Source of the DNA: Mytilus trossulus
Taxonomy: Eukaryota
Length of the DNA: 64,000 bases
Direction: 5' to 3'
Assembly (NCBI RefSeq): GCF_036588685.1
Contig: NC_086377.1
Location: 5,084,001 to 5,148,000, forward strand
The position numbers and the translations under genes are program-made. Below are positions 12,420 through 53,511 of the stretch, one piece after another. The notes beneath the pieces are model-generated. The model was not told where the DNA came from. It ran no database searches and saw nothing but the letters and a program-made list of their open reading frames with translations. The stretch's first letter is position 1, and the number at the start of each line of letters is the position of its first letter.

Positions 12420-13530
12420 AACCAAGAATACACACGCTGAAATGTCCCGCCTTCTTTACTAACCATTGCTTTTATGTTAATAGTCCTAAATATGAAGCTT
12501 TACTAAAAGTATCAAATAGAATTAACATCCAAGATAATGAGGTCAAGGTCAGATAAACCATCGATATTTACACCTTACATTTCTTCAATAGACAAAACAT
12601 AGTATACCTATTGCTTATGGTTTCTAAGAAATAGACTTTACCAAGAAAACATTTGACCAATGAACCATCAAAATGAGGTAAAGGTCAAATGAACCAAGCC
12701 AGACCATACAATCAATCTATGCATTAAATATAGTTAACCTATTGCTTATAGCATCTTAGAAACAAACGTAACCATAAAAACTTAACATTGACCAATGAAC
12801 CATGAAAATGAGGTCAAGGTCAGATGATAACTACTAGACAAACATTAATCGAGAATTACTGATGGTTCTTTTGTGAACAAAACGCGTGTGTGATGTAAAT
12901 ACAAATTTTAATCCTGGTAACTATGATGAGTTTATTTACAGAATACAATATTTCCATATGCAACATATAGTTGATCTTTTTCATAAAGTGTTAAAAAAAA
13001 GAACACAAAAACTCATCAACTTAACATTGACCACTGAATCATGAAAATAAGGTCAAGATCAGATGACACATGCCTGTTGGAAATATACACCTTACAATCA
13101 TTCCATACACCAAATAAGAAGACATACTGTTATATGGACTAGATCACGAAACTTTAACCTTGTTCACTGATCCATGAAATCAGGTCTAGGTCAAATGAAA
13201 ACAGTCTGACGGACAAGAGGACCTTACAAGGTACACACATACTAAATATAGTTATCCTTTCACTTAGAATAAGAAAGAAATTAACATTACATCAAATCTT
13301 GTATTTTTTTAGCGGTCACTGACCCACAAAATGAGGTCAAGGACAAATGACATATGACAGACAGAAACTTCGTAACATAAGGCATCTATACAGAAAGTAT
13401 GAGGCTTGAAGTTCTTCCACCTTCTAAAATATTAAGCTTTTAATAAATTAATTAAAGCCGCGGCCATGGCAGCTGCTGCCAGTCACTATCACTAGGTCGA
13501 TCTTTCTGAGAGAAAAGTTGCAGGCTAGAC
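12420..13530 (+). mobile_element. Helitron/Helentron-associated (HINE-type) non-autonomous repeat with internal tandem core
   Basis: Recurring gaaaatgaggtcaaggtcaga core units, a GACA/GCC microsatellite and a 3' imperfect hairpin before an A-run; related fragments near 10330-10400 and 11270-11495. Confidence 0.55.
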
Positions 13531-13938
13531 AAAAAAGATTTATATTTGGAATTCAAAATATAATGCTGGAAAAAACAAAACTGCCTTGTACTACAATATT
13601 GTGTTTGGATTCAAGAGACACTGACAAGTTAAGTGATTACAAGCTTTTAGTTCAGACACTCGTTAAGTAATATTTTTATTTATTTTATTATTCTGTACAA
13701 AAATCAGGGCCGTTAGTTTTCTTGTTTGAATTGTTTTGCATTGGTCATTTGGTTGTATGGTATTGTTCCTAGTAAGGCGACCTGAAATTGTTAATGTCTA
13801 CATTATTTGTTGTCAGTGGATAGTTGTCTTATTGACAATAATACCACATCCTCTAATTCTTAGAATAGACAATTATGTTTTTGTAGTTTTAGTTGTAAAA
13901 TAACAGTAAATATTTTGTTAAATTAATTTTTAATTGTC

Positions 13939-14098
13939 TTATATGTTGAAATCTTTTATTCTGTAGAAACCATCCATGTCCCAAAACTTGAACCATAAAA
14001 CAAAGAAAACGTCATGGGCCTCAAAAGGCACAAAATGGACTGAAATAAGGTCTGGATCCCTGTAATCGTCACCTGCAATACGTCCTCTGGCAAAATAT
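13939..14098 (-). CDS. FBXO31: FBXO31-like alternative terminal exon B (distal)
   Basis: tttatttacag acceptor, phase 2; open frame (R)YFARGRIAGDDYRDPDLISVHFVPFEAHDVFFVLWFKFWDMDGFYRIKDFNI*. Confidence 0.8.
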
Positions 14099-17000
14099 CT
14101 GTAAATAAACAGTGTTTTGTTTCTAAAAATAAAAGACAGAATTCTTAGCTACCAAAAAAATTTCACATGCAACATTTGTGCAAAGCATAATATATAAAAT
14201 AGCAAACATTTCTTTGATAAAACAGTTCTACCTTAAAACACAGAACTCTGGTCCATAATTAATAAAAATCTTATCCATAATCTAATAAATAGATGAGGCC
14301 TTACAGAATGTAATCAACATCATGACAAAACATTCATTAGAAAGAATTGTGGACATAAAATGTGCAAGCCCTAATACAACTGCATACCAAATATCATTGA
14401 CCTGTCACTAATAGACACCCTATAAACTGACCTAGTTACAAACATCAGTAATATCCTCCAGTAGAAACTGACGCCAAAGACAGAAAGATAGTCTCACTTT
14501 ATAGGACTTTGTCCATGCTACAAAAGGAAGTGGTAATTCATTTGCAGAAGGAAGAAAAAAAATGACCTTGTTTTATTAAAAATCTTTTATTCTGTAATAA
14601 CCAAATATACAATGCATCAACAACCAGAGATTATAAAAAGTATCTTGGGACTGTACACTGAAATGTCCTGGACTAAATGAGGGATTGGTGTATCCAGTCC
14701 CAGCCACTCTCCCTTTAGACAAGTACCTACAACAGAAAGATAGTAAGGCCTAAAATAAAATATTAAAAAAGAAGATGTGGTATGATTGCCAAATGAGACA
14801 ATTATCCACAAAAGACCAAAATGACACAGACATTAACAACTATAGGTCACTGTACGGCCTTCAACAACGAGCAAAGCCCATACAGCAGATTGTTTGTTTC
14901 CTCAATCCCAACCAACCCTGCAAAAACAGTGTTGACTCATAAAATTTTATAGTCTAAACTATATCAAATATTATTTTATTCAATTCTGATTTTCAGGTTT
15001 GCCTGATCTACCCATATTGTTAAAGCTGTTTGAAAAAAATAAAATTATTTCCCTACCTACACCTTCCACATCTTGCTTGGCAGGGTTGTGATTTGAGGAA
15101 AAAAAACAATATATCAATTTAGGCCTAAATGAAAGGTTGGTGTATCATATAGATATAAGAAGATGTGGTATGAGTACCAATGAGACATCTCTCAATCCAA
15201 ATTACAATTTATAAAATTAAATCATCATAGGTCAAAGTACGGTCTTCCCAGGTAGCCTTGGCTCATATCTAAGCTATAAATGGCCCCAAAAAGACTGGTG
15301 TAAAAAAATTCAAACAGGAAAACCAATGGTCTAACCTCAAATGAAGAAAAAAACAAACACTTATCAACAAATGACAACTACTGAACGTCAGATTCCTGAC
15401 TAATGACAGGCACATACTATATGTCATCTATATCAAGATACCTTGACTGCTGAACTGACAATTACTGAATTTTAAGTTAAAGGTCTTTCAGACAAAGGTA
15501 CTACTACAGGTACCACATTAACTTAACATTATTAATGATCCATGAAAACGAGTGCAAGGTAATAAGAAACCTGCCTATGGGACATGTACGCCTTATAATA
15601 ATCGATTAACCAAATTTAGCTTACATATTGCGCATTTCATCTGGGGTAGTGACTTTACAAAGACAACTTAAGCATAATAAATGAATGTGGGTGACCTATT
15701 CTAGTACCTCTCATGTTCAACATCATAGTATTGAAAGTGATACATGTGGCATGAGCAGAAAGCTGTTTCCATCATTAACCTTATCAACATATTCATTTTA
15801 TCTTACCTCCTATACATTTCTGGGAATATGATTGGTTCAAAGTGTCGGCGTGGAGACTGTGTATATTCAATATTAGGTTAGTAGGGAGGCACTGAGGGCT
15901 TAATTTAATACATGGTTGGTAGTGGAGTTACAACTTTGGCACTGTTTGATTATTCAAAAGTATTAAAAGTTCTGTTTAATTTTGTCATATAAAGGTTATT
16001 GATAATAAATAGTTATGTTTGCATTATTTTTTTAGTGCAGACCAATTGAAGAAGGTTCTTAAAATTGAACACTTGAACACTTTCATATGGAAATAAGCAG
16101 ATGTGTTGTGATAGCAAATGAGACAACTCTAGTCTAAATTCAACAAATAAAGATAGTCGGTATGATAAATGTGTTACATATTGTGCTAGTCACAATGCTC
16201 TTTAACTTTATACTTAATTTTTGGCCTTTTAACAATTTTTTCTTTCAAGTGTCACTGACGAGTTTATTTGACACTTCCCAATTTCCTTTCTAAATTTTAT
16301 CACACATTAATGAGTTCTTGCTCATAACATCTATGAAAATAATCTAACAATCAAAACTTAAAACAACAAGAATGTGTCCAAATACCACTGATGTCCCACT
16401 CACATTATCATTTTCCATGTTCAATGGACCTTGAAATTGGGTAAAAAATCTCATTTCGCATAAAAACTAAAAAGATCATACCATAAGGAACATGTATACT
16501 AAGTTTCAAGTTGATTGAACTTCAGCTTCATCAAAAACTACCTTGACCAAAAACTTTAACCTGAAGCGGGACAGACTGACAAATGGACGCACTGACAGAC
16601 CAATGGACCAAAAGACCAGGAAACATAATGCCCCTCTACTATCGTAGGTTGGGCATAAAAAGTAATGAAAATGAGGTCAAGATCAGATTAAAAGATGGCC
16701 ATGTTTACCTTACAAAATACAATATAACAAACATAGTATTGACCAATTGTTATAGATAATTAGAGTTACTATAAACCAACTTATTTTCATGGATACTTAA
16801 TTTTTCTTCAAGCCCATTCTAGTCAACTTCGCAGTGACTTACTTTCCTCAATTTTTGAATTTATTTCATGTAGTTTTAAATAGGTAAAGATCCTTTATTC
16901 ACAATGATCTATATTAGCAGTTTTTGTTGAGCCTTGAATTTTGTTGAATAAGCGAAACACAGCAATATTTTATTCTGTCGTTGTTGTTGTTGAGAGACTG

Positions 17001-20000
17001 CTGCATTCCGTGGATACCTTACAATTCTTGTTTATACTAGCCAAAGGAACAAAATTAAATTGCTTGTACAATAATGTTGGTTTACAACTAATGTTTATAG
17101 TTTGTTCTAATGTTACAGATCTGTTAAAGGTCATGGGAGGATTGTGAGCCCACATTGTGCCTGTCCAATGTCAGGAGACTGTAATTCACTGTTTTAACAT
17201 ATTTATTTTTCGTTTGTTGAATTAGTTTATACATAACTGAAGCTGTTGGTTTTCTGGTTTGATAACTTTTACAATTTTTTCATGTGTGGGTCTTTTATAA
17301 ACTACTATGTTATGGGTTTTGCTCATTGTTGAAAACCATATCTTGACCTATTGTTGCCCACTTCCACATCCTTTGGTCTTTGGTGGATAGGTGTTTCATT
17401 GGAAATCATTCCATTATATAATTATTTCGTATCAGTAAAAAAAATCTTGAGATAAAATAACAATGAATTGAATGTGATTTGTTGTAAAAACAATTCTTTT
17501 TGTGTCTGATTTTGTTATTCACCTCCCTTTTCTAATGTTGACTGAGCGTTGTTATCTTAAAGCCTCAGAATCCTTTCCCCTATTCAGCATGCCAAAATTA
17601 GAATTCTGTTTTATTAGAAAATCAAAGACAACTTTTGAATGAAAAGACACCAGAAGATTGAAGCTTACAATCAACATTGGTAATATATTATAGGTCATTA
17701 CCTGTACTCGCATGTCGTTGGTGTAAAATCATCTAAAAAGGTAGAAAAACCTGGAGGTATCACAAATGGCTGGTTTCTAGGTTGTACATCATCTGAATCA
17801 GGTATATCCTCCTCCTCTAAAAGTAACAAGCTATTGACATCTAACTGCTGGTCTTTAGTGAGCTGCATAGGTTTACGTAAGTTAATGTAGATACTGGTCT
17901 CTCCTGCTGGTACATTAGGATCACCCTGTAACACAGTAAATAAAGAATGCCAAAGTTTAAATCACATTTTGCTGCAATGCCCATCTGAGTGTTGGTTGCC
18001 TTAATGTCAAATTGGTTTAAATTTCATTCTGATTCATCAGAGGTCTCTGTATCTGTTTCTGTTATGTTTGATTAAAGTCAGTTTATCTGGTTAAAGAAAG
18101 TGTACATTCTATCATCATCAACATATAATTGTTCTAAATATAATCATTTGGCAAAATTATTTAGTTTTTCGTCATGATGGTCCACCCATTATGACACTCA
18201 AACACATGCATTCTTGTTCCTGTCTCATGTTAGGAGACTCTGGCCTTTGTTAGTATTGTATGATTTTTTATTTTATTTTCTTGTGTATTATTCAGAGTTT
18301 AGGGCCTAAATTAATATATTGTTTCCCCAATCTAGACCCTGCCAAGCCAGGTGTTGGTAGGTAGGTAGGGAAATAATAGTATAACCTCCATTATTACTGA
18401 ACTAGTATAGATATTTGTTTAGGGGGCCAGCTCAAGGACGCCTCTGGGTGCAGAAGTTTCTCGTTGCATTGAAGACCTATTGGGGACATTCTGATATTCT
18501 GGGTCAGGTTGTTGTCTCTTTAACACATTCCCTATTTCCATTCTCAATTTTGTATTACATATAGATAGTATTGAAAAATTTTCTATAGTAAGAAAAGGGA
18601 AAGAATGGGCCTAAAAACATCAGGGAGTTAAGAACTTACTGTAATTTTGATAACCTCAGCTTCTTTTTTATTCATATCATATTTCAACAGGAACATTTCT
18701 ATCCCATGAGCACTGTAATGTGCTAGGAACAGACCTGGCTGTATCGGGTATACTGGGTCAGGTCTCTGGACTTCTATACGTGTCAGCCTATACTTTGGAC
18801 TGAAAGAAAAAGCAAACATGAAAAAAGACTTAAGGGGGCTGGGTATAAATCTTTTTTTTTTCTAATATAGGATTTTGCTATATTTTTTTTATAAATGAAC
18901 TTTATCATATACTTCAAAGAAAAATGAAATAAAAAGATGGAGTCACCGTTCATTTAAGCTCACAATCTGCCTCTGGAAGATTTTTGTTAATGTCCTTTTT
19001 TTCTGTTGAACTAATAGGAGAAATAGATGTAATATCGAAATAAAAAAATATAATCTAATTACAGAAATAGCTTAAATTTTACAATATTTAGTTTATGTAC
19101 AGATTATTTGAAAACAATAATAAAAAATATAGGTCACCGATGAGTTAAAAAAGATATTTCAAATTTGGTACCCAAAAATAGCATTTTTGCACCAAAGGGA
19201 GATAATTTGGAGCTTTTTCAATGATATAAACATTTTAAAAGTCATCTGGGGCCAAACGGAATCAATTTTTTGGGTTGATTTGTGTCTCATATCATAAAGA
19301 AATAACTAATAGTGTAATAAATAAAACTTGTAATGAAAAAATAAAGGTTTATTTGTTTGCTGAAATTTTTGTACCCAGGAGCCACCTTAAAAACACAATG
19401 TTTGATTTTATGACTTTGTACTTATAAGTATCTACATTAAATTCTTGGATTATTTTTTATTTCACCAAAATATCTGCTTAATTATTTGTTTTTTCATCTC
19501 TTGATAATTATTTGGTTGTGATTTCTCCTGTAACTAAATAATGGCGTCAATACTTAAAATCTCAAGCAATCACCATGTTTCACATTATCTAGCAGAAGTT
19601 ACTGCCTCTTGTGTGTATTGTATAAACCACTTACACATTCTTCATGTAGCACTCTAATCTTTTCTGATCATCTATTGTAAATGGTATAGTGTGGTTGTTA
19701 GTCTCCTTCTTAATCATGATAGATAACTCCTGTCATCAAAAAACATAAAGAATTCATCTAATCATGGTAGATAACTCCTGTCAAAATACATAAAAAAAAT
19801 CTTCTTAGTCATGGTAGAATTTTAGATACTTCCTGTTAAAATGCATAAACAAATTCTTCTTAATCATGGTATATGACTCCTGTCAAAATACGTGAAACTT
19901 CTTTTTAATCATGGTATATATAACTCCTGTCAAAACAGATGATTTTTTTTAATCATGGAAGATAACTCCTATCAAAATATGTGAAAATTTCTTATACTAG

Positions 20001-23000: not shown

Positions 23001-26000
23001 GTAGGTCGATTAAGTAGTCAAACACACCTTCCACATATGTGTGTTCTATACTTACAAACTCTATACTCCCTTGATGTGCCTCACCATATCTTTGTGTGTT
23101 CTATACTTACAAACTCTATACTCCCTTGATGTGCCTCACCATATCATTGTGTGTTCTATACTTACAAACTCTATACTCCCTTGATGTGCCTCACCATATC
23201 TTTTTGTGTTCTATACTTACAAACTCTATACTCCCTTGATGTGCCTCACCATATCTTTGTGTGTTCTATACTTACAAATTCTATACTCCCTGGATGTGCC
23301 TCACAATATCTTTGTGTGATCTATACTTACAAACTCTATACTCCCTTGATGTGCCTCACCATATCTTTGTGTGTTCTATACTTACAAATTCTATACTCCC
23401 TGGATGTGCCTCACAATATCTTTGTGTGATCTATACTTACAAACTCTATACTCCCTTGATGTGCCTCACCATATCTTTGTGTGTTCTATACCTACAAACT
23501 CTATACTCCCTTGATGTGCCTCACCATATCTCTGTGTGTTCTATACTTACAAACTCTACTCCATTGATGTGCCCCACCATATCTTTGTGTGTTCTATACT
23601 TACAAACTCTATACTCCCTTGATGTGCCTCACCATATCTTTGTGTGTTCTATACTTACAAACTCTATACTCCCTTGATGTGCCTCACCATATCTTTGTGT
23701 GTTCTATACTTACAAATTCTATACTCATTTGATGTGCCTCACCATATCTTTGTGTGTTCTATACTTACAAATACTATACTCCCTGGATGTGCCTCACAAT
23801 ACCTTTGTGTGATCTATACTTACAAACTCTATACTCCCTTGATGTGCCTCACCATATCTTTGTGTGTTCTATACTTACAAACTCTATACTCCCTTCATGT
23901 GCCTCGCCATATCTTTGTGTGTTCTATAATTACAAATTCTATTCTCCCTTGATGTGCCTCACCATATCTTTGTGTGTTCTATACTTACAAACTCTATACT
24001 CCCTTGATGTGCCTCACCATATCTTTGTGTGTTTTATACTTACAAATTCTATACTCCCTGGATGTGCCTCACCATATCCATGTAAACACAGTATCTCTGT
24101 TCGATTCTTGGACTTATTAATGCTGATACTAAACACTTTTTTAGGTCGTAATGGACCGTGAACATCTGATACATAAGGTGGTTTGTATTCTGTGGCTAAA
24201 AGTCTGCCATTGTCTACCTGTACAGAATTAAACATAAATTTATAGGGGAAAACAGGTTTTTGTAGGTACAACATTGAAACTAAACAAAATAGACAGTTAT
24301 ATGCAGTTTTTAAAGTTTAAAGCAGAATAACATATTGAAATTATTACAAGAATAATAAAGAGACATTTTCATAATTTCAATTCTTTTATTTTTAAACATG
24401 TAAATCATGTAAATTGAATATTTTACTTTTGTCATAAATCAGGTTGTTTGTTTTTTCCTTTGAATTATTTCATATTTTGATATGACTAGCTTGGTCATTA
24501 ATATCTGAATATGCAGTAGGTTTTGATCATTGGGGAAGGCTGTACATTAGCCTGTTATTGCATAAATCAACATCATTTGTTAGATAGTTGTCTTACAGCC
24601 AATTACAGGGAATCATGTGACATCTCAAGAAGAACTGGTTGATTTGCATTATGAGGTTATCTGAAGAAGTTACTCTTTATCATGAAACATACATAGCAGT
24701 CAAAAGCCACATTCAAATAATAAAACACTTAATATCTTAGCTAGAAAGTTACCAAACAAAGAAGATTTAACTAAAACCATACTTTAATTTGCATCAATCC
24801 ACCATAGGGCCTCATGTTTCTTTTCCACAACCCAAGACATCTGCCATATTTGTGAAGAACTGTAAATCAAATACACACATTTTGTTAGTTTTACATATCA
24901 GCTGTGTAGAACAGTAAATTGGTAACACACATTTGTTAGTTTACTCTGCTAGAGTGCTTGAGTTCATCAAGTGTTTGAGGGCGTAGTTAGTGATTCTCAA
25001 TTGCTGTTTTCTGTATATATGAACACATGACTACACTAGATAGAGTTAAGATGCCTTCACTGCAGTGCTTTGTGTACATTTCTGTTTAGCTTTTTTGTTT
25101 TGCTTTTTTGTTTTGATTGTCACCATGTAAATTTCTTCTGTTTCATCAATATTTTTGAAGAATGACATATTTCCACTTTTTCAATATTTCAGTAAGAGCA
25201 GGCCTGAGGAGTAGCTGCGGAACCATAGCTCTTACATGTAGGTCCTTTTGCTATTTTTTGACAATTTGCGGACCATAAAAAGGTATGTCATATCCTAGAA
25301 AAATATCTAATATCGACTAACCAATACAAATACAAGCTTTGCATTGATTATAAACAATAAATTTTGGGAAAATAAGTGCCACCTGAACCTGAGTCGCAAT
25401 TCCGAACGTTTTGAAATAGGAAAAATCCGTAGCTCTAAGATCGGCAAATAGTAAAAAAATAGCATAAGGACCTAAGAGCTACGGTTCCGTAGCTAGAGCA
25501 GGAGATGTCTGGAATTTTGTTTAACTTTGAATAGCTTGATTTTAATCTTCTTAATTATTTTTTCAGATTTGAATATCAGTTCACTGATGTCTCTTCAGTA
25601 TAAATTTCCAGTTTTTTGAAAAAAAATCTTTAAAATCTTAAAACTTACCAATGTATGTCACTGACCTTTTGTATAAATAACATAGTATGTTGTGTCCCAT
25701 TCATCCACTTTAATATCACAAACTGTAAAAAAATAACATCAACTTATTTACTTCTGTATATATTTCATTTCGTATAAAAAAGATTTTTGGTATGATTGCA
25801 AATGAGACAACATTTCACAAGAGACCTAATAACACACAAATTAAGAACTAAGGGTCACTGTACATGCTGTACAGCCTTAAACTATGAGTAAATGCCATAC
25901 CGTAAATTCAGCTATAAAAAGCCCTAAATGACAAATGTAGAAATGATTTGGGTGAAAACAACTTGACTTTGTTTAATTGTTAAATAATCAATGAAATCAA

Positions 26001-34625: not shown

Positions 34626-35861
34626 TTAATGAATTTTGAATATAGATAAACACGAATATCCTACATGAATATAAATATCAGTAACAGCATGTATATCTAT
34701 GGTATCACGCAAGCTTAAAGAAACAACGGCTGAACCTGTACCGGTATGATGATTTTCGATTTGGTCACCAGAAAAGCGTGGCACTATACGCACATAAACT
34801 AAAGTGTTTTTGTTTTTCCTGATTTGATATTCTGCATCAGATAAATGGGTCATTATGCTAGCAATGATCAGGTATAGTCCAGGTTTCTCACATGTAAACT
34901 TTCCATTGGTTTGTAAGGTGGATAACGTATTGATTCCGTATGATGATCTGATGTTAGGAAATCTGATCACTGAATTGTTGTTATAGCGGTCACCAGTAGC
35001 GCACGCAGTAACGGCAACTGTAAAAGAGAAAATAAGATACATATAGCTAACAAATAGTATTTAAATATAGTAATGTGATAATGACCTGTAATCTTGTTTT
35101 TTTTTTAGGAATAATTCAACAGTATGTAATAATGCTGTATTTTGATTGGACGAGAGACCAGTTTCCCCCAGTAATTTCTATAAATTGAGAATTTCTTTTC
35201 TCTGCCGGTGTATCTGTCATTAAGAAATTTGAAGTTTGAATATTAAGACTACTGCCAGCAGCCGGTTGGATATTAAATCGTGTGAATATCGAAAAACGAA
35301 AATCGAACTTGCCGCTTACTTCACATGGCTGCATGCTTCTATTTGAAAATAAATCACAGACTTATCAAAAAACATTATGAACATATCAATTTCGTGAGTC
35401 TAACGCTCATTCAAAAAGAAGTCTTAATTAACTTATCATAATAATTATCTACCTTGCTCACTTTCCTTTGTCTGTTTATCTTCCAAGACCATTATGTCAT
35501 TTTTAATTCTATTTAACATTGTCATGGTTATCTTAGACGAATAATTTCTGTAGTAAGAACAACAATTTTCGAACTGTGTAGATTTTGATTGAACTGTATG
35601 TAGCTCTGAACGCAATATTTCAAAGTCCTTCAGAATGATAGGTATTTTAGATGTAATATTGGTAAGTTTTTTCACTTCCATTTCAAGTTGTCCAATATTT
35701 TGTATAATTTGTTTTTGTTCTTTTCTTTCCTCTATGATGATATCAAAGAGCGCATTGTAACGGCTATTTGTTATTTCACTATTTAAGGAGCCAGGCGTTG
35801 TCAGTTCAAAAAGAAACCCGAATATTGTAGGAAGAAGAAACAGCCAAATTACTCCCACCAT
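34626..35861 (-). CDS. Secreted C1q-domain-containing protein (C1qDC), 2 exons, 266 aa
   Basis: Exon 1 35453-35861 (signal peptide and coiled-coil, phase-1 GTAGAT donor). Exon 2 34626-35017 (gC1q: VIRFPNI..GKFTCEKPGLY..HTGTGSAVVSL..SCLSIFKI). Confidence 0.9.
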
Positions 35862-36297
35862 AATTTATATTTTTTTCACATGAAGTCGAACGGTGTCGGA
35901 GAAGCTTTTGGTACTTAAAACATCTACGATGTTTGAATGTTATCTATAAGTACCCACCTTTTGGCAAAACACCCAAATTGCATGGAGCTTATATAATGTG
36001 TTGATAAAATAAACTCTTCAACATGTTCAAATATAGATATTTGACTTCATCAAAAGACACGTGCATTTAATCATCTTTAATAGTGAACAAGGCAGGTATA
36101 CCATAAATAAAAACAACCAACATTTTTCATAGCAAACGACGTGAATTAGAACTGAAAACACTACAATGTTAAAAATTGTAAAAATTAAAACATGTTAAAT
36201 GGCAGACAATGACTTGCAATTGATATGACTTATTAACGACTAAAATGAAAACGGGGAATAGGTCAAGGAGACACAACCCGTCCAAAGAGATGATAAC

Positions 36298-36514: not shown

Positions 36515-37185
36515 TTCGTTTTCGAACAAATTCACTCGGGGAGTTGAATTCTACATCGAAATTGCAAATTTCAAGGGGCCAAAACAGCACCTCCATTTTG
36601 TTTTTAGGGATCCCTGACAGGTCACCTATTTTCAGTTTTCGCTAACCATAGCTTTGCTAGGTTAGTTTTATCGGGAGGGAAAAGTTAAAGCACCGGGAAG
36701 GGAACCTTGTGTGGCTAAGTTTCAGTCACCGTTTGTTATTTTTGAGGGATTTTTTCATACTTGGCCGTTTGCGGAGCCCTTGTAGGAACAAGTGTGAACC
36801 CCTTACTCGTTCTGCAAAACCCTTGTAGGGAATTTTGTAAACCCCAATCCAGTTCCGCCGCGTATTGCACTCAATTGACCTACGCAGCTCAACTTCCATT
36901 TGCAACCATAATTTGCAAATCTTCCGGTTGTAAACAGAAAGAAGAAATTGTAAGTGTCAAATTAAAGCAAAAAAACACATTGCACATACACCTGCCATTG
37001 TATATACACTCCTCTGGGGTCAACTTATAAGCTTGATCCCCAGTTAAAAAAAGTTGTTATATTAAAACCATACAAAACAGTCAAATATTATAAATACCCC
37101 TTTCCAGTGGATACCCCTGCCAAATCCCTAAACTAAACCTAAATTGTTTATTGTTTAATTATTGTGTTCCCATTCAAGTGTGACC

Positions 37186-38916
37186 ATGGCTAGAGTCCAC
37201 ATAAACTCTGCCACTTTTGAGGAATTGTTATCAATTCCAGGGGTAGGGGCTAAAATTGCCGCAAAAATTTGGGAATTGAGGGAGGATAAAGGAATTCTGG
37301 AGTTGGAGGACCTACGGGAGGTTCCTTATATGAGAATAACGGAGGCAGCTCTAGAATCTATGGATTTTAGTACCTCCCTGCCACCCAACAGGGGGTCTAA
37401 TAAATTTTGCAAAGAGGAGATAGGGCATCAAGAGAAGGTGCAAAGGATTGATAGCCTCATACAGGCCAGGGGTAGGGGGCAAACAGAGTATCCCAGTCAA
37501 TCAGTAGAAACACCCAGAGCCAGGGAGTCCGTGTCCACATCTCCATCCCAACACATCAATTTCCAAGATGGTGGGGAACTTAACCGGGGTTTCAGGGAAG
37601 ACATGGGGACCCACCAGGACCGATGGGACAGGCCCATGGGTGCTTATGGGGGTCCAAGAGATTACAAGTATGAAGGGGAAACACCTCGGTCTAGATATAA
37701 CAATGCCGGAGATACAGGAAGGGGAAGAGGGGGTTTTCAAAACCAGTTTATTGATAATGAGGGTCCAAGGCTCAGAGATGCCCAGCCGGAGAGCGAGGCT
37801 CCGGCATCAAGGCACGCCAGTAGCATGGGGTACCCCACAGGGTCAGGGGAACCCAGACGGGGATATGGGGACCAGAGAAGCTCTCGTCGGGATGCATATG
37901 ACCACCAGGGGAACATGGGAGGGTCAGATAACCAAAGACAGAGGGGGTCTATGGGGGTTAGACCTCCCATCCTACAAAAGAGCTTAAAGTATGATGGGAA
38001 AACTAATTGGCAGGCTTTCTATGCCAAATTTTCCCGATTATGCCAGGTTAGTGGGTGGTCTTCAGGGGAGTGCAAGGATCAATTGTGCTGGTCCCTTGAT
38101 GGGAAACCCAGTGAGTTTTATGCCTTGCTCGTGGAAAGAAGGCATGACTTGTCTTATGAAGACTTGGTGAGTAAGTTGGCCAAACGATTTGGGTTCAATG
38201 AGTTGCCAGAAACAGCCCAAGTCCAATTTAACATTGCCAGGCAGGGTGGGGATGAAACCTTAGAGGACTGGGCCGACAGGGTCCAATCACTCGCCACAAA
38301 AGCCTTCCGTCACCTTCCTGAAGATCACATGTACCAGCAAGCCATCATGAGATTGTGTCAGGGGGCCTCAGATAAGGAGAGGGGAATGTTGGCCTCCAAT
38401 GCCAAACCAAAGAGTATTGAGGAGGCAGTGGATAAAATTCGTATGCACCAACATAACCACCAGGCCATATATGACCGTAGTGCCAGAAAAGAAGTAAAAA
38501 GTGTAAGTCCTGAGATCCGAAGCCGGGGTGGGGATCACTATACTGTCTGTTCCACATCAGGACCAGTCCCCAATAATGCTCCTTCCAAAATTATCCCCAA
38601 AGAACATTCTCCTAAAGATGTCCAGGATTTGAAGGACCAATTTCATGCCTTCAAGGGGGAGGTAAGTGGGACTCTGGGCAATATCATGTCTGAAATACAA
38701 AAGCTATCTTTTGCTGTCCGCAATAATGCTAGGCCCCCATCCAGAAGCCCCTCTCCTCGTGCCGGTGGTTGTTTCCATTGCGGGGAGGCAGGCCACTTTA
38801 AAAGGGAATGCCCAAAGTTTCAAAGGTCTAATTCTCCTCGACCTGGGGGAAAAAAGGTAACCTTCCAGGACAACAAGGGTCCGTTAAACTCCAACGGGTC
38901 GACTCAAGAGGTCTGA
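37186..38916 (+). CDS. gag: Gag with N-terminal helix-hairpin-helix, capsid-like domain and CCHC zinc knuckle
   Basis: ACCATGG Kozak start; VHINSATFEELLSIPGVGAKIAAKIWELRE (ComEA-type HhH); YDGKTNWQAF..RQGGDETLEDW; CFHCGEAGHFKREC at 38770-38811. Confidence 0.92.
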   Translation: MARVHINSATFEELLSIPGVGAKIAAKIWELREDKGILELEDLREVPYMRITEAALESMDFSTSLPPNRGSNKFCKEEIGHQEKVQRIDSLIQARGRGQTEYPSQSVETPRARESVSTSPSQHINFQDGGELNRGFREDMGTHQDRWDRPMGAYGGPRDYKYEGETPRSRYNNAGDTGRGRGGFQNQFIDNEGPRLRDAQPESEAPASRHASSMGYPTGSGEPRRGYGDQRSSRRDAYDHQGNMGGSDNQRQRGSMGVRPPILQKSLKYDGKTNWQAFYAKFSRLCQVSGWSSGECKDQLCWSLDGKPSEFYALLVERRHDLSYEDLVSKLAKRFGFNELPETAQVQFNIARQGGDETLEDWADRVQSLATKAFRHLPEDHMYQQAIMRLCQGASDKERGMLASNAKPKSIEEAVDKIRMHQHNHQAIYDRSARKEVKSVSPEIRSRGGDHYTVCSTSGPVPNNAPSKIIPKEHSPKDVQDLKDQFHAFKGEVSGTLGNIMSEIQKLSFAVRNNARPPSRSPSPRAGGCFHCGEAGHFKRECPKFQRSNSPRPGGKKVTFQDNKGPLNSNGSTQEV

Positions 38917-38951
38917 GTCTGGCCCCTAAACCACGGAGTATAAAGGACCTC
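38883..38951 (+). promoter_or_regulatory. Putative -1 ribosomal frameshift signal (slippery heptamer plus H-type pseudoknot)
   Basis: G TTA AAC, 6-nt spacer, stem GGGTCGACTCA/TGAGTCTGGCCC, loop GAGGTC pairing with GACCTC (38946-38951). Pol is in the -1 frame and open from the heptamer. Confidence 0.75.
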
Positions 38952-41900
38952 ATGATAAGCCATAACCCACCTTACTTAACTAAGGAGGGTACTATCAGTC
39001 AAATAGAAATGATACCGGAGGAAATAATTTCCCCACTTGTGCAGGAATGCCTAGAGGAACCGTCCCATTCCGAGGAACTAGGGGTCATTAAATCACTACC
39101 TCCTGTCCCACCAGACCCCACGTCCACCAAGGAGAAAGACATAGCTCAAACAGCAAAACTAATAGAGGGGCCTAAGAGGGAACCCATCAATCTCATAGTC
39201 CCGGACATGTCTGAATCGGGGTCACAAGACGAAGAGTCGGGGGAGGAAGGGGAACAAACACTGTGTGATAGCTCAAACAGTGATGGGGAGGGGGACTTAG
39301 TGACAGAGGGGGAAAAAGAAATGATAACCATAAGTCAGTTAACGGGGGGTACTATGTATCGGGTGCCTGTGGTAGTCCAGGGTCACAGGGTCGACGCTGT
39401 TGTAGACACAGCAGCTCAGGTTACCCTAATATCCGAGGAAACGTACAAAAGTTTAAAGGAGCTCGAGCCACCTCCTATTCTTAAGGAAGTGGTGATGAAC
39501 ACTGCAGGAAAGGGCCTACAAATGAATGGGTTTGTTGCTGGGCCTTTTTATATTAAGTTGGGGAACCAAGATTTCACATGGGACATATATGTAGCACCAA
39601 TTGGAGATCAGATGCTTTTGGGAATAGACTTCTTAAGGAAGCAGGGCATATCGCTCGACTTGCATAGGAATCAATTGTCCATTCACGGGGAGGTCATCCA
39701 AATGTCATGGGGTCAGGCCAGTTCATTGCCCCAAACAACTGAGGTACGGGCAGGAAAGAATCACACAGTCCCAGCCAATTCAGTTCAAAGAGTCATGGGA
39801 GTGTTAGCCAAACCCATGGGTCGAGAATACATCATTGAGGCAAAGGCTGAGGGCTGTTTGCTCATACCCAGAACCTTACATGATGTAGGTCAAGATCCGG
39901 TGTTGTGTCTGATAAACCTCACCGATAGTCCCCTGGTGATCTCAAAAGGGGATCTACTAGCCCAAGCTCAGGAAGTCGACATGGGGGAACCCCCGGGCCC
40001 TAAAGTGTGCAAGATGGGGGTTGCTGGAGAGGTTAAGGAAAAATTGTTGCCCCAACACTTACAAGAGATGTTCACCAGGTCCTGTGAGGATTTGTCTAAG
40101 GGGGAGGAGGAGACCTTGTGTTCCCTGTTACAGGAATTTCAGGATGTCTTTGCTAGCAGTGACTTAGATCTGGGCCATTTCACGGCCTTGGAACATGGCA
40201 TTGACACCGGGAATCACCCCCCCCCCCCCATTAAACAGCGAATGCGGCGCACCCCCTTAGGTTTTGCCCAAGAAGAGGAGGCTCATTTGGAAAAAAATTT
40301 ACAATCTGGGGTAATTCAGCCATCCGTATCGGAGTGGGCTTCTGCCCCAGTCCTCATACGGAAAAGGGATGGTAGCGTTAGGTGGTGCGTGGACTATAGG
40401 AGGGTCAATGGGGCCTGTTCCCGCCAAATCTTTGCACTCCCCTTAGAAGAAGAGTGCCTAGACACCCTAGCAGGAAATGTGTGGTACTCCAAGCTGGATG
40501 CCAATTCGGCGTATTGGCAAGTCAAAATAAAAGAGGATGACCGGCCAAAAACGGCTTTTATCACCAAATATGGGCTGTTTGAGTTTGCACGCATGGCTTT
40601 CGGGCTATGCAATGCCCCAGCCACATACGCCCGGGTCATAAGCCTTGTACTCCGGGGGTTAATATGGCGGGTAGTGTTGGCTTTTTTGGATGACATATTA
40701 GTCTTGGGAAGGGATTTTGGGGACCACTTGGCAAACCTGAGGGTAGTATTTGAAAGGTTTAGGACGTACGGGCTCAAACTAAAACCCAGGAAGTGTGATT
40801 TATTTAGGAAAAAGGAAGAATTTTTAGGGAGGGTGGTAGGTCCCGAAGGGATGGAAATTGGGCCGGGATATGTAAAAGATGTAAAAAACTGGCCAAAACC
40901 CCGGAACTCAAAGGAAGTAGAACGGTTTTTGGGATTCGCAAACTATCACAGGGCCTTTATAAAAGACTATACTAATATAGCCTTACCCCTTCAAGCCTTA
41001 ACCGGAAAACGCCCCTATTTCTGGGGAAACGAGCAACAACAGTCTTTCGATAGACTCAGGGAAGCCATGGTGTCAGCCCCTGTTTTGTCATTACCCAATG
41101 CCACTGATCCCTTTATCTTAGACACGGATGCTTCCGACAAGGCTATTGGGGCAGAATTATTGCAGGTCCAGGGGGGACAGGAACGGGCCACGTCCTATGC
41201 TAGCTTTACCCTTACCCCAGAACAGCAGAAATATTGTACTACCCGAAAGGAGCTGTTAGCCATTGTCAGGTTCACCAGGCTATTCAGACATTACTTGCTT
41301 GGGCGGAGGTTTACGGTTCGAACAGATCATAGTAGTTGGTTAACGAATTTCAAGGAACCCCAGGGACAATTAGCCCGGTGGCTGGAAGAAATCAGTCAGT
41401 TTGATATGGAAATCAAACACCGGCCAGGGGCTAAACATCCTAATGCAGACGCTTTGTCTCGATTGCCTCAATATGGACCGTGTCCCGAGTTTCAAGTAGA
41501 CAAGGTTCTAGCCAATTTGCCCTGTGGGGGATGTACCTACTGTGCCCGAGCTCAACAAAATTGGGGACAGTTCACGGAAAATGTTGATGATACCATACCC
41601 TTGGCAAAGAGACCCTATGGTAGTACACAACCCAAAGACACACGAGAACCAGTGGTGCAAATATCCCGGGTGTCTGTGTCAAAGAGGGGGGACGAATTAG
41701 CCATATGGTCAAAGGGGGAGGGTGACATCTGGGTGCAGGAAGTAGGAGGGGACCTAGGGGTCAACTTGGGCTACAGTCAGGAAGAGTTAAAAGAAAACCA
41801 AAGTAAGGACCCAGACTTAAAATGGGTGGTTCAATGGAGGAAAACAAAAGGGGAACCCTCTGAGGAGGAAATCTTCCTCAGCGGTCCCGCCTCCAAGTAC

Positions 41901-43292
41901 TACTGGTTAAATCGGGAATTATTTGTCCTTAGTGGGGATGGTGTACTGTACAGGAAGGGGGTGAAAGGAGAGGCAGATAGGGTGGTCATTCCCCAAGTAT
42001 CAAGGAAGGAACTCATGGAGTTGTGTCACGATATTCCTGCAGCGGGCCACCAAGGGGGGGACCGAACCTACCAAAGGATCAAGCCAAGGTATTATTGGAG
42101 AGGGATGAAGAAAGAGATTGAACAGTATGTAGCAAGTTGTGCTTTGTGTAGCCAAAACAAAAAGGCTACTCGCCCAAACCGTCACCCTATGGTGAAACAT
42201 CACGCCGGGGCACCAATGGAAAGGGTTCATCTAGATTTTGTGGGGCCCCTCCCAAAAACAGAAAGGGGAAATGAACATATCCTCATGATGATCGATCAGT
42301 TTACCAAATGGGTGGAATGTGTCCCTCTCCCCGCCTAGGGCGCAGAACTAACAGCCCGCACGGCAGTGAATGAGTTCTTCTCCCGTTTCGGGAGTCCCTT
42401 TCAGGTATTCACTGATCAGGGGAGGAACTTTGAATCCCATCTGTTTAAAGCCATGTGTGACCTGCTTCAAATACACAAAAGTAGAACCACCCCATACCGC
42501 CCCTCCTCCAATGGTCAAGTAGAGCGTTGCAATCGAACGCTGATGGCTTCAGTGCGGTGCTTTGTGGGAAAAAATCAAAAGTCCTGGGATCTATTCCTTC
42601 CGCAATTAGCTGGTGCGTTCCGTGCTTCAGTCAGTAGAAGCACCGGGTTTACTCCTAATCATCTCATGTTGGGCAGAGAAGTCAATCAACCTGCTGAGTT
42701 GATGTTCAGGGGGCCACAGGGGGAGGAAATTCAGGATAGAGAAAAATATGTTTCAGACTTAGAGGAGGCCATCCAAGGGGCACACGAGCTGGCCAGGGCC
42801 AACCTAAAAACGGCACAAGAACGCCTCAAAAGGGATTACGATCTCAAGGTGGTAGTCAAAAGGTTTAAGGTGGGGGATCTAGTGTACCAATTGGACACGG
42901 CCACCATCAAGGGAAAATGTCGGAAACTGACACCATCTTGGAAGGGCCCTGGGGTGGTGGTGGAAAGTCTCACTCCATATCTTTACAGGGTCAAAATGAA
43001 AACAGCAATGGTGGTGGCCCATCATGACCGGATTAAGTTGTGTAAAGATAGGGAGGTCCCAAATTGGTGTAAAAAACTACAAGCCCAAGTTTTAAGTAGA
43101 AATTGGAAGGAAATAGAGGAGTTGGAACCCAAGGGAAAAAGGGGAAAAAACATTTATTGCTCATACCGGGGACCAGAGGATGGGGGTCTCATGATTAGAT
43201 GTGACGAGTGCAGGGAATGGTTCCATGGACGATGCGTGGACATCACTCCTGAGGAGGCGGACAGAATGGACGCTTATCAGTGTCCTGGATGT
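38883..43292 (+). CDS. pol: Pol polyprotein (protease, RT, RNase H, integrase, C-terminal PHD); interrupted by an in-frame TAG at 42336-42338
   Basis: DTAA protease (39405), FLDD RT (40683), DTDAS..TDH RNase H, HHCC and D-D-E integrase, WKGP motif, PHD at 43155-43292. The frame resumes directly after the stop. Confidence 0.93.
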
Positions 43293-43355
43293 TCGGTCTC
43301 CACAGAGGTGCACGTGTCCAGGATCTCCCTGCACTCTAAGGTAAATCTATTTCAG

Positions 43356-45394
43356 ATGAATAACAACACCAACAGTATTGACAAAACAGGGGATGGAAGC
43401 CAGCCACCTTCTCCAGAGCAGGCCTCCGTCACAGAGGTGACGGAGGAACTGGTAGTGTGTGTGTCGGAGGAGGAGCTGAGGCAGCTGGACCCTGAGGTCC
43501 AGGGGAGCCCAGGGGCTGCCTTAGAGGTATGTGGGGGGTCCGAAGGGGGGTCTGAAGGGGTTGAGGGGAAGGGGGAGGTGAAGAAGACCAAGAAGAAGAG
43601 GAAGTCGAGGAGCAACAAGAAGAGCAGAGCTGCCAAGAAGAAGGCCACGGCAGCAACCTCACCTCTCCTGACAACCTCACCTCAGGGGGTGGCTCAGGGT
43701 CAGGAGGTGTGTCGGGGCCAGTCTGGCTCCCCAGCTTCCGGTGAGGTGGCAACACCTCACTATGGAGTTCAGGGTGAAGCAGTTGGTACTGGACTGTCTT
43801 GTCCAGTTTCTGGCTGTGAAACCCGGGGACCAGGCCTGGAAGGGCACATTCTCGCGGAGCACGTGGCCGAGGTGTTCCGTGACCTGGTAGTCTCCGACCC
43901 AGGGTTAGCCCGGGTGCGTCTCACATCGCTGAGCACACTCTTCAGGGCCCTGGGGGGGGCTGCTGTTGGGGACCCCATCCATTGGGTGATAAGCCAGCTG
44001 GAGACTGTGGGGCTGACTCCAGAGGACTTGACCGCTGAGTGGGGAGCCATGGCAGCAGTGTGCCAATTGGCGCGATGGGAGGTTCCGCGAACCTTTACAC
44101 TGTCACCAATAAACTCACCTGCAGTCCTTATGCATTGGAGGGCGCAGGTGGAGTTGATGGCTTTACTACAGGAACATCAGCGTCAGGCCTTTCTGGGGAA
44201 GGTTAACCTTAGCTCCAGTGAGCCGTCCCAGGCGAGCTCTTCTAGTGAGCAGGGGAGTCCACCAGCCAAGGCAGGAGTTTTTAGCCGGCTGGGGGCTCCG
44301 GTTTGCACACAGGGGACTCCCAGGCCCATGGGGCAGGTTGGGGCGTTCAGTTCCACGGGGCCCTCTCCCAGGTCCATTCCCTCCCTCATGTCCCTCCCCA
44401 CCCGGCCTGTACCCTCCCTCATGTCTCTTCCACGTCCTGGTCCCAGCAGGTCACTTCCAAGTCTAGGGTCAAGAGGCTCATCCTCATCTGTGGGGGCACA
44501 GGGATCAAAGTACCCGGGGAATCCCTCAGGGAGTAGGGGAGTGGAGTCTCAATTGTGCAGGGATCTTCCGGAGGCATTTGACAGCCATATGCATCTGGAT
44601 AGGTCCCTGACCAAGATGGGGCTGCCTCCTCGGACATCTCTGGGTGATTTCCTAAGGGTGCGGTTGGACCCTGCCCCTGTGGATCCAGTCAAGCTGGCTG
44701 GAGGGGTTGCAGTTTTCTGCAACCCGAAGACTTGGCCCAGTGTGCCTTTGAGGCTGGAGCCAGGGTGGGTTGGAGCAGTGGGAATCCACCCAAAGAGTGC
44801 TGGGCAGTTTGAGGACGCCGTTTAGCACCGGTTCCACCAACTGGTGTCGCACCCAAGTGTGTCCGCCCTTGGAGAGGTGGGAGTGGATTACACTGTGGAG
44901 GAAAAACTACACGCCCGGCAGATATCGACCTTGCGATGGGCACTCCAGTCCTGCCGCTTTGACCAGCCTGTGGTCTTGCACATTCGGGGTGGCAAACTGG
45001 ATAGGGTTCACGCCCGAGCCCATCGCGAGGTCTTAGAGGTTCTGAAGAGTGTGGTAGTCAATCCGCTGCAGTTAATTCATCTCCACTGTTTCCAGGGGGG
45101 ATTGCTCAGGTGCGGGAGTGGCAAGACTCATACCGCAACGCTTATTTTGGGTTTGGTATGGGTGTCAGGTCCTTTAACTCTGAGCAGAAGGAGGCCTTGA
45201 GGTCGGTGCCCCCATACAGGATTCTCTTGGAGAGTGATGCCCCTTACTTCCCCCCACCAAATGCACGGCATGGCCACCCTCATTAACTTTATGAGGTGGC
45301 AAAGGTGGTGGGGACAGTGAGGGCAGAATCACCGAGGGAAATTGTACGGGTGGCCCACCTCAATGGTAGCCGTCTGTACGGAGTTAACCCGTAG
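43356..45394 (+). pseudogene. tatD: Env-position ORF in frame with pol: basic NLS, C2H2-like finger, TatD-family nuclease domain (44571-45394); disrupted in this copy
   Basis: DSHMHL, AVGIHP, ALGEVGVDY, PVVLHIRG, HLHCF, YFGFG, RILLESDAPY, GHP..LYEVAKVV..NGSRLY. Lesions: TAG 44823, 1-bp loss in the G-run 45095-45100, TAA 45284. Confidence 0.88.
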
Positions 45395-48907: not shown

Positions 48908-51900
48908 TTAATCAATTTTGATGATAGACAAACACGAATATTTCCCATAAATGTAGCTATTGGTGACCACATGTATTTCTAAAATATCATGTCTATTCAA
49001 ATTGTCAACAGCTGATCCTGTCCCGGTATATTGTTGTTGAGGACCACTAGAATAGTCTGGTACTATACGGACGTTAACCAAAGCATTTCCATTTTTTCTT
49101 ATTTGATAAGCTGCATTAGGTGAATGGGAGGTTATGCTAGCAACGATGAGGTATAATCCAAACTGATCACATGTAAATTCTCCACGAGTTTTAAAAGGAA
49201 CTACACTAACGACTCCATGTGAGGTTTTGAAGTCCGGAAATTTAACTGCTCTATTATTGTAATTGTATCCACCATCAGTACACGCAGTCAAATAAACTGT
49301 AACAGAAAAAAAACTCAATACTACACAATCAGCAACAAATATAATTTATAGATCATAAATTGCTAAACTGACGATAACATAAATAAATGGTTCGCATATT
49401 AAGATTGAACGGACTTCTTTTGGTCGGAATTATTTGACACTAGTTATATAGAGACTTGTACAATCAAACTCAGGAGAGCAAAGACCATTCCAATCCGATT
49501 AAATAGATCTACGAAGAGATGATATATTTCCTTTGGCACCATCTTACGGTGTTTATATTTCACAACTAGTTCACTATTCCCGTGTCTGTTTTGACGTTTT
49601 GATTTTAACGAACGTATTCTATGTATTAATGGTAAATTATTAAGCCAGGGAATTCATTACCACAAATTACTCAAAACCTAAACTAAGTTATTCCATAGAT
49701 ACACAGATTTGGTATAGAAGTGTGGTTGTACCTGTAAAAACTTATTTCAAACGGGATAACACATCCTCATTTTTACGGAAATGTAGATGCATGATTTTTT
49801 TATTAGTTGTTAGTGGCTTTGAACTAGATGTTAGTAACTGCGAGAACTCTCAGATCATTACTTATTGTCTTTTTGTTGTTGGGATATACAAGTATCCGGC
49901 CACGTCTACTCTGTATTTTTGTTAGATGTATTTCTATTTGTATCTATCTAATGAGTTTTTTTCAACTGATTTTGATAGTTCGTTCTTATGTTGTACTGTT
50001 ACACCACTGTCCCAGGTTAGGGGAGGGTTGAGATCCCGCTAAAATGTTTAAACCCGCCACATCTGTATATATGTGCCTGTCCATAGTCAGGAGCCTGTAA
50101 TTCAGTGGTTGTCGTCGTGATGTGTTACAAATTGATTTTTCGTTAATTGTTTTTTACATAAATTAGGCCGTTAGTTTTCTCGTTTGAATTGTATTACATT
50201 TGTCATTTCGAAACCTTTTATAGCTGACTATATTTATGAGGTATCGGCTTTGCAAACTGTTGAATACCGTACGACGACCTATAGTTGTTAATTTCTGTGT
50301 CATTTGGTCTCTTGTGGAGAGTTGTTTCATTGGCAATCATACCACATCTTTTTTTTTTTTATATATATTAGCTCTATTCAAGTAAAAGTACTGGTGTATA
50401 TCTACAATAACGGATGAATTATGTTTACGGAAACAACCTATGTGTCTTTTGTCTTTATACAAATTATATTGCTCCATTGGTGTTTACATGAATATTGAAA
50501 TTGACCCCTTCTCAGAAATTAATTTGAAACATCATTAACACCACTATCACCATTACATGAATAAAACAAATTGTTTATTTTGATTTTATTAATACAAATA
50601 ATTGAAGGGTATACGAGGAGTATGTGGCATGGCATAAATTATTCTTAAACAATTGCATCCCAGTATCAAAATCATATGAAAAATATACTTTCATTAATTC
50701 TTAAAATAAACTGAAAATAAAGGTTAATTTCGAATTCAAAAAAAAATTTGTATACACAGACAGTCGTTTTCTCTTTTGATTAGTACAAATCTCAACTGTC
50801 AGCTGAGGAAAATTCATTTCATACCATACAGTTAAGGTTGTGCTCGTTATTAAAGACCGTGAATTAATCGTGATTTGTAATTAATCAAATATGTGTCCTC
50901 TGCTCTTTAATTGATTGTTCTTTGAATGGCGATTATACAACACCTCTTTATTTTCATAGCGTGATGGGGTTCATTATAACAATATACTAATTTGGAATGT
51001 TAATTTATGTATGTTTTTAGTGCTAAATAATTAAAAAAAGGGCTAAGGAAGAAATAAATAGATTCAAACCAAAAATATTAACGTGTATATTTTCATTAAA
51101 ATGTTCTTTAATTACAAAACTTATTAAACACACATATATTTTCATGAATACCAATGTCCTAAATTAGAAAAAAAATCACTTACTTCTTAAGAACAAAATA
51201 ATATGCATTATGTATGTAGGACTCGGATGTGCGATGGGGACACTGAATTATGATTGTCCGTTTGATCATGTGCGATGGTCTATTTGACGCATGATGACTA
51301 GTTTAAAATCGACAAAATTATGTGCAATTTTTATGAGATTGTATTTTGGTCATGTTGGTATCTATGTATGATTGTAAGTTTATAAGCCCCTTTAAAACTG
51401 TTCCGATGTTGAATATGCATAAAATATTTTCAACTCGAATTTAAAAATTAGCCATCCATCATTCGGATAATTTTTAAACGATTGTATGAACAGTGGCTTA
51501 TTTTTGTCCAAGCCAATTTACAAAGTACATTACAACGATACAGACATGAATGGTTATTCGATAACTATAAACCAGGACTGATTTAAATTGAAAGGGTAAC
51601 ATTCTCGATGATTAACTTAATAAACATGAAAAGCCGCTTCTAGGAAACAACTTGATCTCATCGTCGACATGTGAACATGTTGGTATGATACGGGTTATGT
51701 TATTCTCATATATCATGTATATTTTATGATTGTATAATACTAAACCGCTAACGGGAGGGATTGTGCTTGATTTTCATATGATGAAGACAAAATCTTTCTA
51801 TCAGTTTAATTGAGGTCTGGAGCTGGCATGTCAGTAACTTCTAGTAGTTCTTTGTTAATTTATGTATCATTGTCATTTTGCTAAGTTTCTTTTGTTACCT

Positions 51901-52836: not shown

Positions 52837-53511
52837 ATTTTTTTTTTTTTACATGAAGTCTAACAGTGTGAGAAAAGCTTTTGATACTAGATATCTATTG
52901 TGTTGGAAATTCATATTTATAAGTATCGCCCGTTTTTCAAAATAACAACTATGCATAGATCGTATAAAATGCTTTATAAGATAAGCACTTCTACGTCTTT
53001 AAATGCAGATAGGTGATAATAGGAACAGACATGTCTGATAAATAGGATTTGAAATAATTAAACAGGCGTTATAAACCAGATGCAATTCCCCGACAGAACA
53101 CTGTATGTAAATTTACGCAATAATCTACATGCCTCCGTACCAACGAAGTTTAACAGTGTCAGATAAACTTTTGATACTAAATATCTATAGTGTTAGAAAT
53201 TGATATTGATAAGTATCGCCTGTTGCGACATTTTATCTAATTTATTACGTTTGTTTGGATAATTTTTTATCCTATTAAACATTTTATAAGATCTATGCAA
53301 TGTTGTAAAAATAACAACATTGCATAGATCTTATAAAATGTTTTATATGATAAACACTTCAACATCCTTAAATGCAAATAGGTGATAATTTGAAATGACA
53401 TGTTTAATAAATAGGATTTAAAAATTATACATACAAGCGTAGTAAAATTTCGCAACAAAAACTATTTGTAAATAAACCATCATAGATACCAGGATTGAAA
53501 TGTGAAATTTG

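Follow-up and report, generated by a model that had tools for sequence, protein, structure and literature searches.

The FBXO31 locus and its two last exons

The window, a 64,000-nt stretch of the Mytilus trossulus genome, carries on its minus strand a gene of the FBXO31 type whose last coding exon is present in two versions. From an ATG at 26550, a nine-exon model is open with either last exon and encodes 384 amino acids (form A) or 387 amino acids (form B), with no internal stops. The first coding exon (E1, 26550-26409) encodes the F-box and is 12 nt shorter than in two other copies of the gene. Exons E2 to E6 (25722-25666, 24859-24783, 24217-24044, 21235-21161, and 19729-19635), which are shared by both forms, were placed by tblastn of database isoforms, GT-AG boundaries, and an open frame. 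They are followed by shared exon E7 (18799-18640), which encodes strands 1 to 3 of the barrel together with Y239 and K262, and by the last shared exon, E8 (17925-17702), which encodes the GDPNV pocket loop (D266, V269, and S275) and supplies the phase-2 donor for both last exons. Exon 4 is also where a 55-bp tandem repeat of 19 copies begins (23038-24078). The repeat unit includes the end of the exon with its splice donor, giving 17 donor-like motifs in a row, and the other two gene copies have shorter arrays.

The proximal last exon, A (14726-14576, minus strand), completes a split Arg codon and encodes 49 residues before a stop at 14578-14576. The distal one, B (14098-13939, minus strand), completes the same kind of split codon and encodes 52 residues before a stop at 13941-13939. 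A polypyrimidine tract and TAG directly precede exon A, a polypyrimidine tract and CAG acceptor directly precede exon B, and both exons are compatible with the phase-2 GT donor at 17702/17701, from which the B acceptor lies 628 nt farther than the A acceptor. An earlier note on this DNA, made by eye, had described two homologous, open, phase-2 last exons with good acceptors, and each part of that description was borne out. Its estimate of 35 to 40% identity was also close: 20 of 49 aligned residues are identical between A and B (41%), with an alignment score of 104 against a maximum of 43 in 2,000 shuffles. At the DNA level, 84 of 147 nt are identical (57%; pS = 0.67), which makes the A/B duplication old compared with the divergence of the gene copies. 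We found no third copy of the terminal exon in the 64-kb window or in two 40-kb blocks around the other gene copies. Exon B has an optional in-frame 5′ extension of 24 nt (14099-14122, minus strand), which starts from an upstream AG acceptor at 14122, keeps the frame open, and adds eight residues at the start of strand 5. This acceptor is used by database models P0005 and P0068 and is absent among the splice joints listed from aligned contigs.

Several lines of evidence identify the gene. Full-length proteins of a neighboring gene copy, P0010 (A form) and P0009 (B form), match Pfam family PF12014 with 83.5 and 67.7 bits (cut-off, 22) and score above the cut-off for F-box families PF00646 and PF12937. 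Taken singly, E7 and exon A each match PF12014, and exon B has no match at E values up to 1. The sole PDB sequence match is human FBXO31. Among named proteins, Mytilus "F-box only protein 31-like" isoforms come closest, and identity then falls to about 36% in scallops. Together with the top structural match to human FBXO31 described below, these results uphold the earlier assignment of an FBXO31 gene with alternative last exons. Because no further PF12014 locus was found among the loci scored in the genome, the tandem cluster to which the gene belongs appears from its sequence to be the animal's FBXO31. One database model, P0013, fuses FBXO31 to GINS4; its GINS4 part lies on another contig, and we set it aside as a probable mis-joined model.

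The cluster consists of three tandem copies on contig C5 (4975192-4985337, 5067806-5084901, and 5097939-5110550). The last of these is the window's copy, and the other two lie about 30 kb and 125 kb downstream of it. Exons A and B are open and preceded by AG acceptors and polypyrimidine tracts in all three copies. The window's copy differs at its other end, where a 12-nt in-frame deletion in E1 removes four residues, including an F-box Trp that is invariant in all 73 aligned homologs having that column. The other two copies keep the full F-box exon, and database models matching the window's copy begin downstream of the F-box. Since the invariant Trp is lost, SKP1 binding by the window's copy is doubtful. 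This copy may be impaired or SKP1-free, or the 12-nt deletion may be an assembly error. In M. edulis and M. galloprovincialis, the RefSeq accessions look like one isoform series each, and copy number may vary.

Other features lie upstream of the gene. Related coiled-coil/C1q-like exons occur on the minus strand at 34629-35864, 48911-49345, and 52486-54519; one matches Pfam C1q, and two others that we tested had no match. On the plus strand, 37159-45283 resembles an LTR retrotransposon with gag, protease, reverse transcriptase, RNase H, and integrase, preceded by an N-terminal helix-hairpin-helix motif and with a PHD finger after the integrase region. The frames that follow this element appear TatD-like by eye. 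At the edge of the window (62998-64000, minus strand), frames bear a resemblance, judged again by eye, to a Penelope-type reverse transcriptase; the part that was searched had no Pfam match at an E value of 0.001.

Transcript evidence for the two exons

To follow the junctions named in the earlier note (17702^14726 for A and 17702^14098 for B), we used sequencing runs. Four of 23 available runs, chosen from four studies, were aligned as contigs to window positions 12800-19000. These runs are not recorded as RNA, and the label "RNA" is a program's guess, but their contigs join across introns. The E7-E8 joint was present in three of the four. The E8-B joint (14098/17702) was seen directly in two, namely, in two contigs of run X1 and in run X17, where a single 600-nt contig runs from E8 through exon B and on into 3′ sequence as far as 13714. 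The 15 joints listed, beyond which a further 147 exist, do not include E8-A, and use of that joint was instead read from contig ends. Specifically, the E8-A junction has 3 + 2 ambiguous bases, and two contigs end at 14723 and 14728, at the two limits within which a spliced E8-A junction can be placed. The first, from run X5, spans 14571-14723 and leaves 92 letters over; its depth of 42.7 recurs at 17743 in E8. The second, from run X1, covers 14088-14728 with six letters unplaced, and the intron at that point is identical in all three gene copies. We strongly infer from these ends that splicing to A occurred in two of the four runs (X5 and X1). Thus, of the two proposed junctions, that of B was listed and that of A was recovered indirectly. 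Missing cover (B in runs X4 and X5; A in X4 and X17) is uninformative, as contigs drop rare forms and alignment had a 90% likeness limit.

The contigs also bear on the 3′ end of the A form. The A-B spacer (14099-14575, minus strand) is intron in the B form. In run X1, however, a contig crosses it at a depth of 69.4, compared with 3 to 9 for listed intronic pieces of the same run, a sign that in A transcripts the spacer and exon B may be retained as 3′ untranslated region (UTR). As to a possible role of alternative polyadenylation in the choice, AATAAA motifs lie at 14591 and 14577, and the X5 contig ends close by at 14571, shortly past the stop codon of A, yet the X1 contig reads into B, and contigs cannot show RNA ends. 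In the gene model, exon A ends in a stop and lacks a donor for further splicing, and A and B should therefore exclude each other. Such exclusivity was seen for B and is strongly indicated for A. B was the sole form in run X17, and its joint contigs were the deeper ones in run X1, although contig depth is a poor measure of level. The X5 contig runs unbroken into A and the X17 contig unbroken into B, which is only a hint of sample-dependent exon choice.

Of 12 listed variants, the X1 contig shares 9 with the third gene copy, as well as both deletions; the X17 contig agrees fully with none of the copies. As no contig among the aligned runs could be assigned to the window's own copy, expression is not shown for that copy. 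Protein records extend the evidence to other mussels. Among Logan-derived proteins of one 90% cluster, P0011 crosses the E8-A joint and P0038 crosses the E8-B joint; the shared part of P0038 is identical to M. californianus at 109 of 110 residues. RefSeq contains both A and B isoforms from M. edulis, M. galloprovincialis, and M. trossulus, as well as B from M. californianus. In the first three species the two are annotated as isoforms X1 and X2 of "F-box only protein 31-like" (e.g., XP_071141069.1/XP_071141070.1 and XP_076082197.1/XP_076082198.1). Database models identical to the window could derive from the same assembly, or one very like it, and cannot serve as independent evidence for the DNA.

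Age, spread, and constraint of the exon pair

We drew homologs from the best 150 of 478 library matches and built trees of terminal segments from 44 and 43 hand-picked rows of 135 distinct segments (52 columns), the second tree omitting P0072, a long-branch row of the first. A and B each formed starred clades and fell together on one side of a branch with support of 90/85, opposite 30 other rows. We also considered whether B is an old bivalve lineage akin to Mercenaria-type exons. This idea gained no support, as the free tree groups B with A at 90/85, although the AU test did not reject the alternative topology (P = 0.057). Between edulis-lineage and californianus-lineage mussels, identity in exon A is 82% (28 of 34 residues, from a truncated record). 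The window's form of B is 65% identical to that of M. californianus (34 of 52), while the adjoining shared part is 92 to 93% identical (102 of 110).

The exon pair was seen only in Mytilus and Mytilus-like proteins, a distribution that falls short of deep conservation across species. Oyster, scallop, and clam proteins each have one kind of terminal segment per protein. In a metagenome scan, a terminal exon was found in 19 of 33 nonmussel loci and was always single, with at least 800 nt of downstream sequence in only 9; the scan contained no mussel-like locus, its best segments being 24 to 50% identical. The simplest reading of these sequences is that the exon was duplicated in mussels at a time when the edulis and californianus lineages had not yet parted. 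Oyster FBXO31 (P0018, P0019, P0021, P0025, and P0041) comprises several diverged proteins with differing terminal segments, some of them fused head to tail in database models. Oysters appear instead to have several whole-gene FBXO31 copies. Bivalves may diversify the pocket via gene duplication, and mussels also via exon duplication.

The earlier note had called for dN/dS of each exon across bivalves. The comparison made here was among the three gene copies, and in that narrower setting both exons appeared constrained. Synonymous divergence among the copies in E7 plus E8 was 0.11 to 0.21, and omega for these shared exons was 0.11 (20 synonymous and 8 nonsynonymous changes). For the same three copies, omega was 0.19 for exon A (4 synonymous and 3 nonsynonymous; P = 0.033 versus neutral) and 0.30 for exon B (6 synonymous and 8 nonsynonymous; P = 0.032 versus neutral). 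These values are modest, weak evidence that both exons are under purifying selection, as they come from 7 and 14 changes. Exon B has an omega roughly threefold higher than the shared exons, and its divergence also fits relaxed constraint.

The barrel and the meaning of exon choice

To place the two exons in the protein, we compared AlphaFold models of P0010 (A form; 91 aligned sequences; pLDDT, 94.1) and P0009 (B form; 92 aligned sequences; pLDDT, 93.7). Human FBXO31 (5VZT) was the top structural match for both, with TM scores of 0.87 (A) and 0.86 (B), although the alignments used for folding were rich in outgroup sequences and would tend to force a barrel on either exon. The two forms are identical up to residue 339. 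In the models, the C-terminal domain has eight strands, four from E7 and E8 (233-283) and four from the alternative exon (338-385), in agreement with the earlier suggestion that this segment is part of the substrate-binding barrel. The FBXO31 fold is described as a continuous antiparallel calycin barrel with a loop funnel and a Lys at its base, in which upstream degron residues contact strands and loops (PMC9098119). Given this topology, the loops after strands 1, 3, 5, and 7 should lie at one end. Those after strands 1 and 3 carry Y239 and D266/V269, so that those after strands 5 and 7, both encoded by the alternative exon, would be expected to border the same entrance.

The human protein is the substrate receptor of an SCF complex and a recently recognized reader of C-terminal amides left by oxidative protein cleavage, and human Y309, D334, I337, and T343 are each reported to be required for amide binding (PMC11821526). 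The mussel equivalents, Y239, D266, V269, and S275, are all encoded by shared exons and hence do not differ between the two forms; nor does K262, the counterpart in E7 of human K330. Both residues that the earlier note had singled out, the Asp of GDPN and the Tyr of YSAHG, are indeed present. At the last pocket site (human T343), 51 of 92 homologs have Ser and 39 have Thr.

The alternative exons themselves differ at positions that the family tends to keep. Among 119 outgroup exons (conservation counts leave out rows P0005, P0018, and P0041), the prevailing residues are His (58%) and Gly (63%) following strand 5 and, where strand 8 begins, Ser (57%) and Ser (73%). At these four sites, exon A has Thr, Gly, Cys, and Phe and exon B has Asp throughout, a residue found in only 9%, 2%, and 1% of outgroup exons at the His/Ser/Ser sites. 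The three Asp residues of B at those sites (Asp349, Asp379, and Asp381) are all kept in M. californianus B.

We favor, with moderate confidence, a tandem duplication of the last exon in which both copies were kept and are spliced and in which the two forms differ in side-chain preference. The last coding exon of FBXO31 would have been duplicated in the mussel lineage before the split into edulis-like and californianus-like mussels, leaving donor 17702 to join either the proximal acceptor (A) or the distal one (B). Each isoform is predicted to fold as a complete F-box protein with an FBXO31 barrel. Strands 1 to 4, with the Tyr, Lys, Asp, and Ser/Thr that would read the substrate C terminus, would be common to both. 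Strands 5 to 8, as placed by the models, and two of the four entrance loops, as placed by topology, would be swapped. Both forms would then most likely still read C-terminal amides and differ in their preferred last or near-last side chains. B, with Asp 349, 379, and 381, might favor basic residues or repel acidic ones, and A, which has Thr, Cys, and Phe there instead, might favor apolar termini.

The earlier note had gone further and proposed that exon choice could switch substrate specificity. Because the four amide-binding residues are all in shared exons, a tuned side-chain preference is most likely, judging from the sequence, rather than a full specificity switch. Such tuning may matter little, however, since human FBXO31 is described as largely sequence-agnostic and binds almost any amidated terminus (PMC11821526). 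The note had also taken the cyclin D1 C terminus to be an established substrate. That view is disputed by the same source, which found no FBXO31 binding of the unmodified cyclin D1 C terminus. A bolder version, in which splicing rebuilds the degron pocket, tissue or stress switches between half-barrels with two sets of C-terminal degrons, and acidic B reads basic amidated termini or another mark, is one that we hold only tentatively.

Shared pocket residues and a permissive human protein are also what would be expected if the two isoforms are both produced and function in the same way, the duplication being tolerated or regulatory (through 3′ UTR length, mRNA stability, or protein turnover) and the exons drifting under weak constraint. 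The apparently longer 3′ UTR of the A form in run X1 and the wide variation of terminal exons across the family are also in keeping with this. We nevertheless regard it as doubtful. From the edulis group to M. californianus, B kept three unusual Asp residues while a third of its other positions changed, and the exons differ in net charge (A has 2 D+E and 4 K+R; B has 9 D+E and 6 K+R).

B could alternatively be binding-impaired, still assembling with SKP1 and serving as an off-switch or a decoy, with the ancestral function left to A. It is the more diverged form, with 33 to 42 bits on the family profile compared with 58 to 61 for full-length A and a score below 118 to 119 of the 119 outgroup exons from which that profile was built. 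It has also lost conserved His, Gly, and Ser positions, and it misses PF12014 on its own where exon A passes. Yet B has fewer amino acid changes than expected under neutrality, models as a full barrel, and keeps conserved Gly, Ala, Pro, His, Trp, and Arg residues and a second-strand Phe that is lost in A. These features, together with its place as the sole form in run X17 and in the deeper joint contigs of X1 (with the caveat on depth given above), make an impaired B unlikely.

Quite unlikely, too, is a change in the chemistry that is read, in which one form would recognize amidated C termini and its counterpart some other terminal mark or a sequence-based degron. A single charge change, D334N, makes human FBXO31 recognize a new [K/R]-X-hydrophobic degron (PMC11821526; bioRxiv 10.64898/2026.01.28.702440), and in the mussel half of the barrel is exchanged, with a gain of several negative charges. 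But the D334-equivalent Asp sits in a shared exon, and extra acid would be expected to exclude carboxylate termini further rather than admit them. A decaying pseudo-exon or an assembly artifact, for which one might cite collapsed or duplicated haplotypes among the three gene copies and the indirect reading of the A joint, is largely refuted already by exons open in three of three copies, spliced contigs for both, named proteins with A in three species and B in four, and an A-B DNA identity far below that among the gene copies, which also oppose the refuting case set out in the earlier note, that only one exon is ever spliced and the other decays in related genomes.

The exon pair is real, is expressed in mussels, and is already in database annotation, and its architecture is not itself new. 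In the literature on FBXO31 in Mytilus, in bivalves or molluscs, and in invertebrates, where subscription papers are thinly covered, we found no published study of Mytilus FBXO31 isoforms, and the literature matches listed included no case of duplicated terminal exons in a ubiquitin ligase. No such exon pair was found in the other animals sampled. The two mussel forms, which we favor as tuned variants of one reader, make a natural matched pair for a direct test of what strands 5 to 8 and their loops add to degron choice, a question that bears on FBXO31-based degraders (bioRxiv 10.64898/2026.01.28.702440).

The mussel gene resembles human FBXO31 (5VZT/5VZU) in its F-box and PF12014 domain, its fold (TM, 0.86 to 0.87), and its pocket of Y, K, D, I/V, and T/S. 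It has two versions of strands 5 to 8, both of which depart from the W-x-x-L-x-S-x-S pattern of the FBXO31 family. Its arrangement recalls substitutions derived from tandem exon duplication, such as FGFR2 IIIb/IIIc, in which a C-terminal half-domain is swapped and ligand-contacting loops are altered (PMC8373072). That class includes 3′ events through alternative last-exon use, as here, where two homologous exons of the same phase lie in tandem and each completes the domain. The main text of that study does not contain the word "ligase," and its supplementary list holds 236 events. Most human events of this kind are more than 425 million years old and conserved (PMC8373072), whereas the mussel pair seems limited to mussels and fast evolving.

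A parallel within bivalves is the oyster alternative oxidase pair CvAOXA/CvAOXB, in which the last exon (AOX exon 10) is duplicated in tandem and 3′ alternative splicing joins either copy (PMC5589949). There, too, conservation is greater in one copy, and the other carries novel changes close to functional sites; in mussel FBXO31, the more diverged copy is the distal one. Unlike FBXO31, oyster AOX is a mitochondrial enzyme, and its variant rises under stress (PMC5589949). If the A/B ratio were to shift with tissue or stress, the mussel gene would parallel oyster AOX and could tie splicing to the removal of proteins damaged by oxidation in an animal of the intertidal zone.
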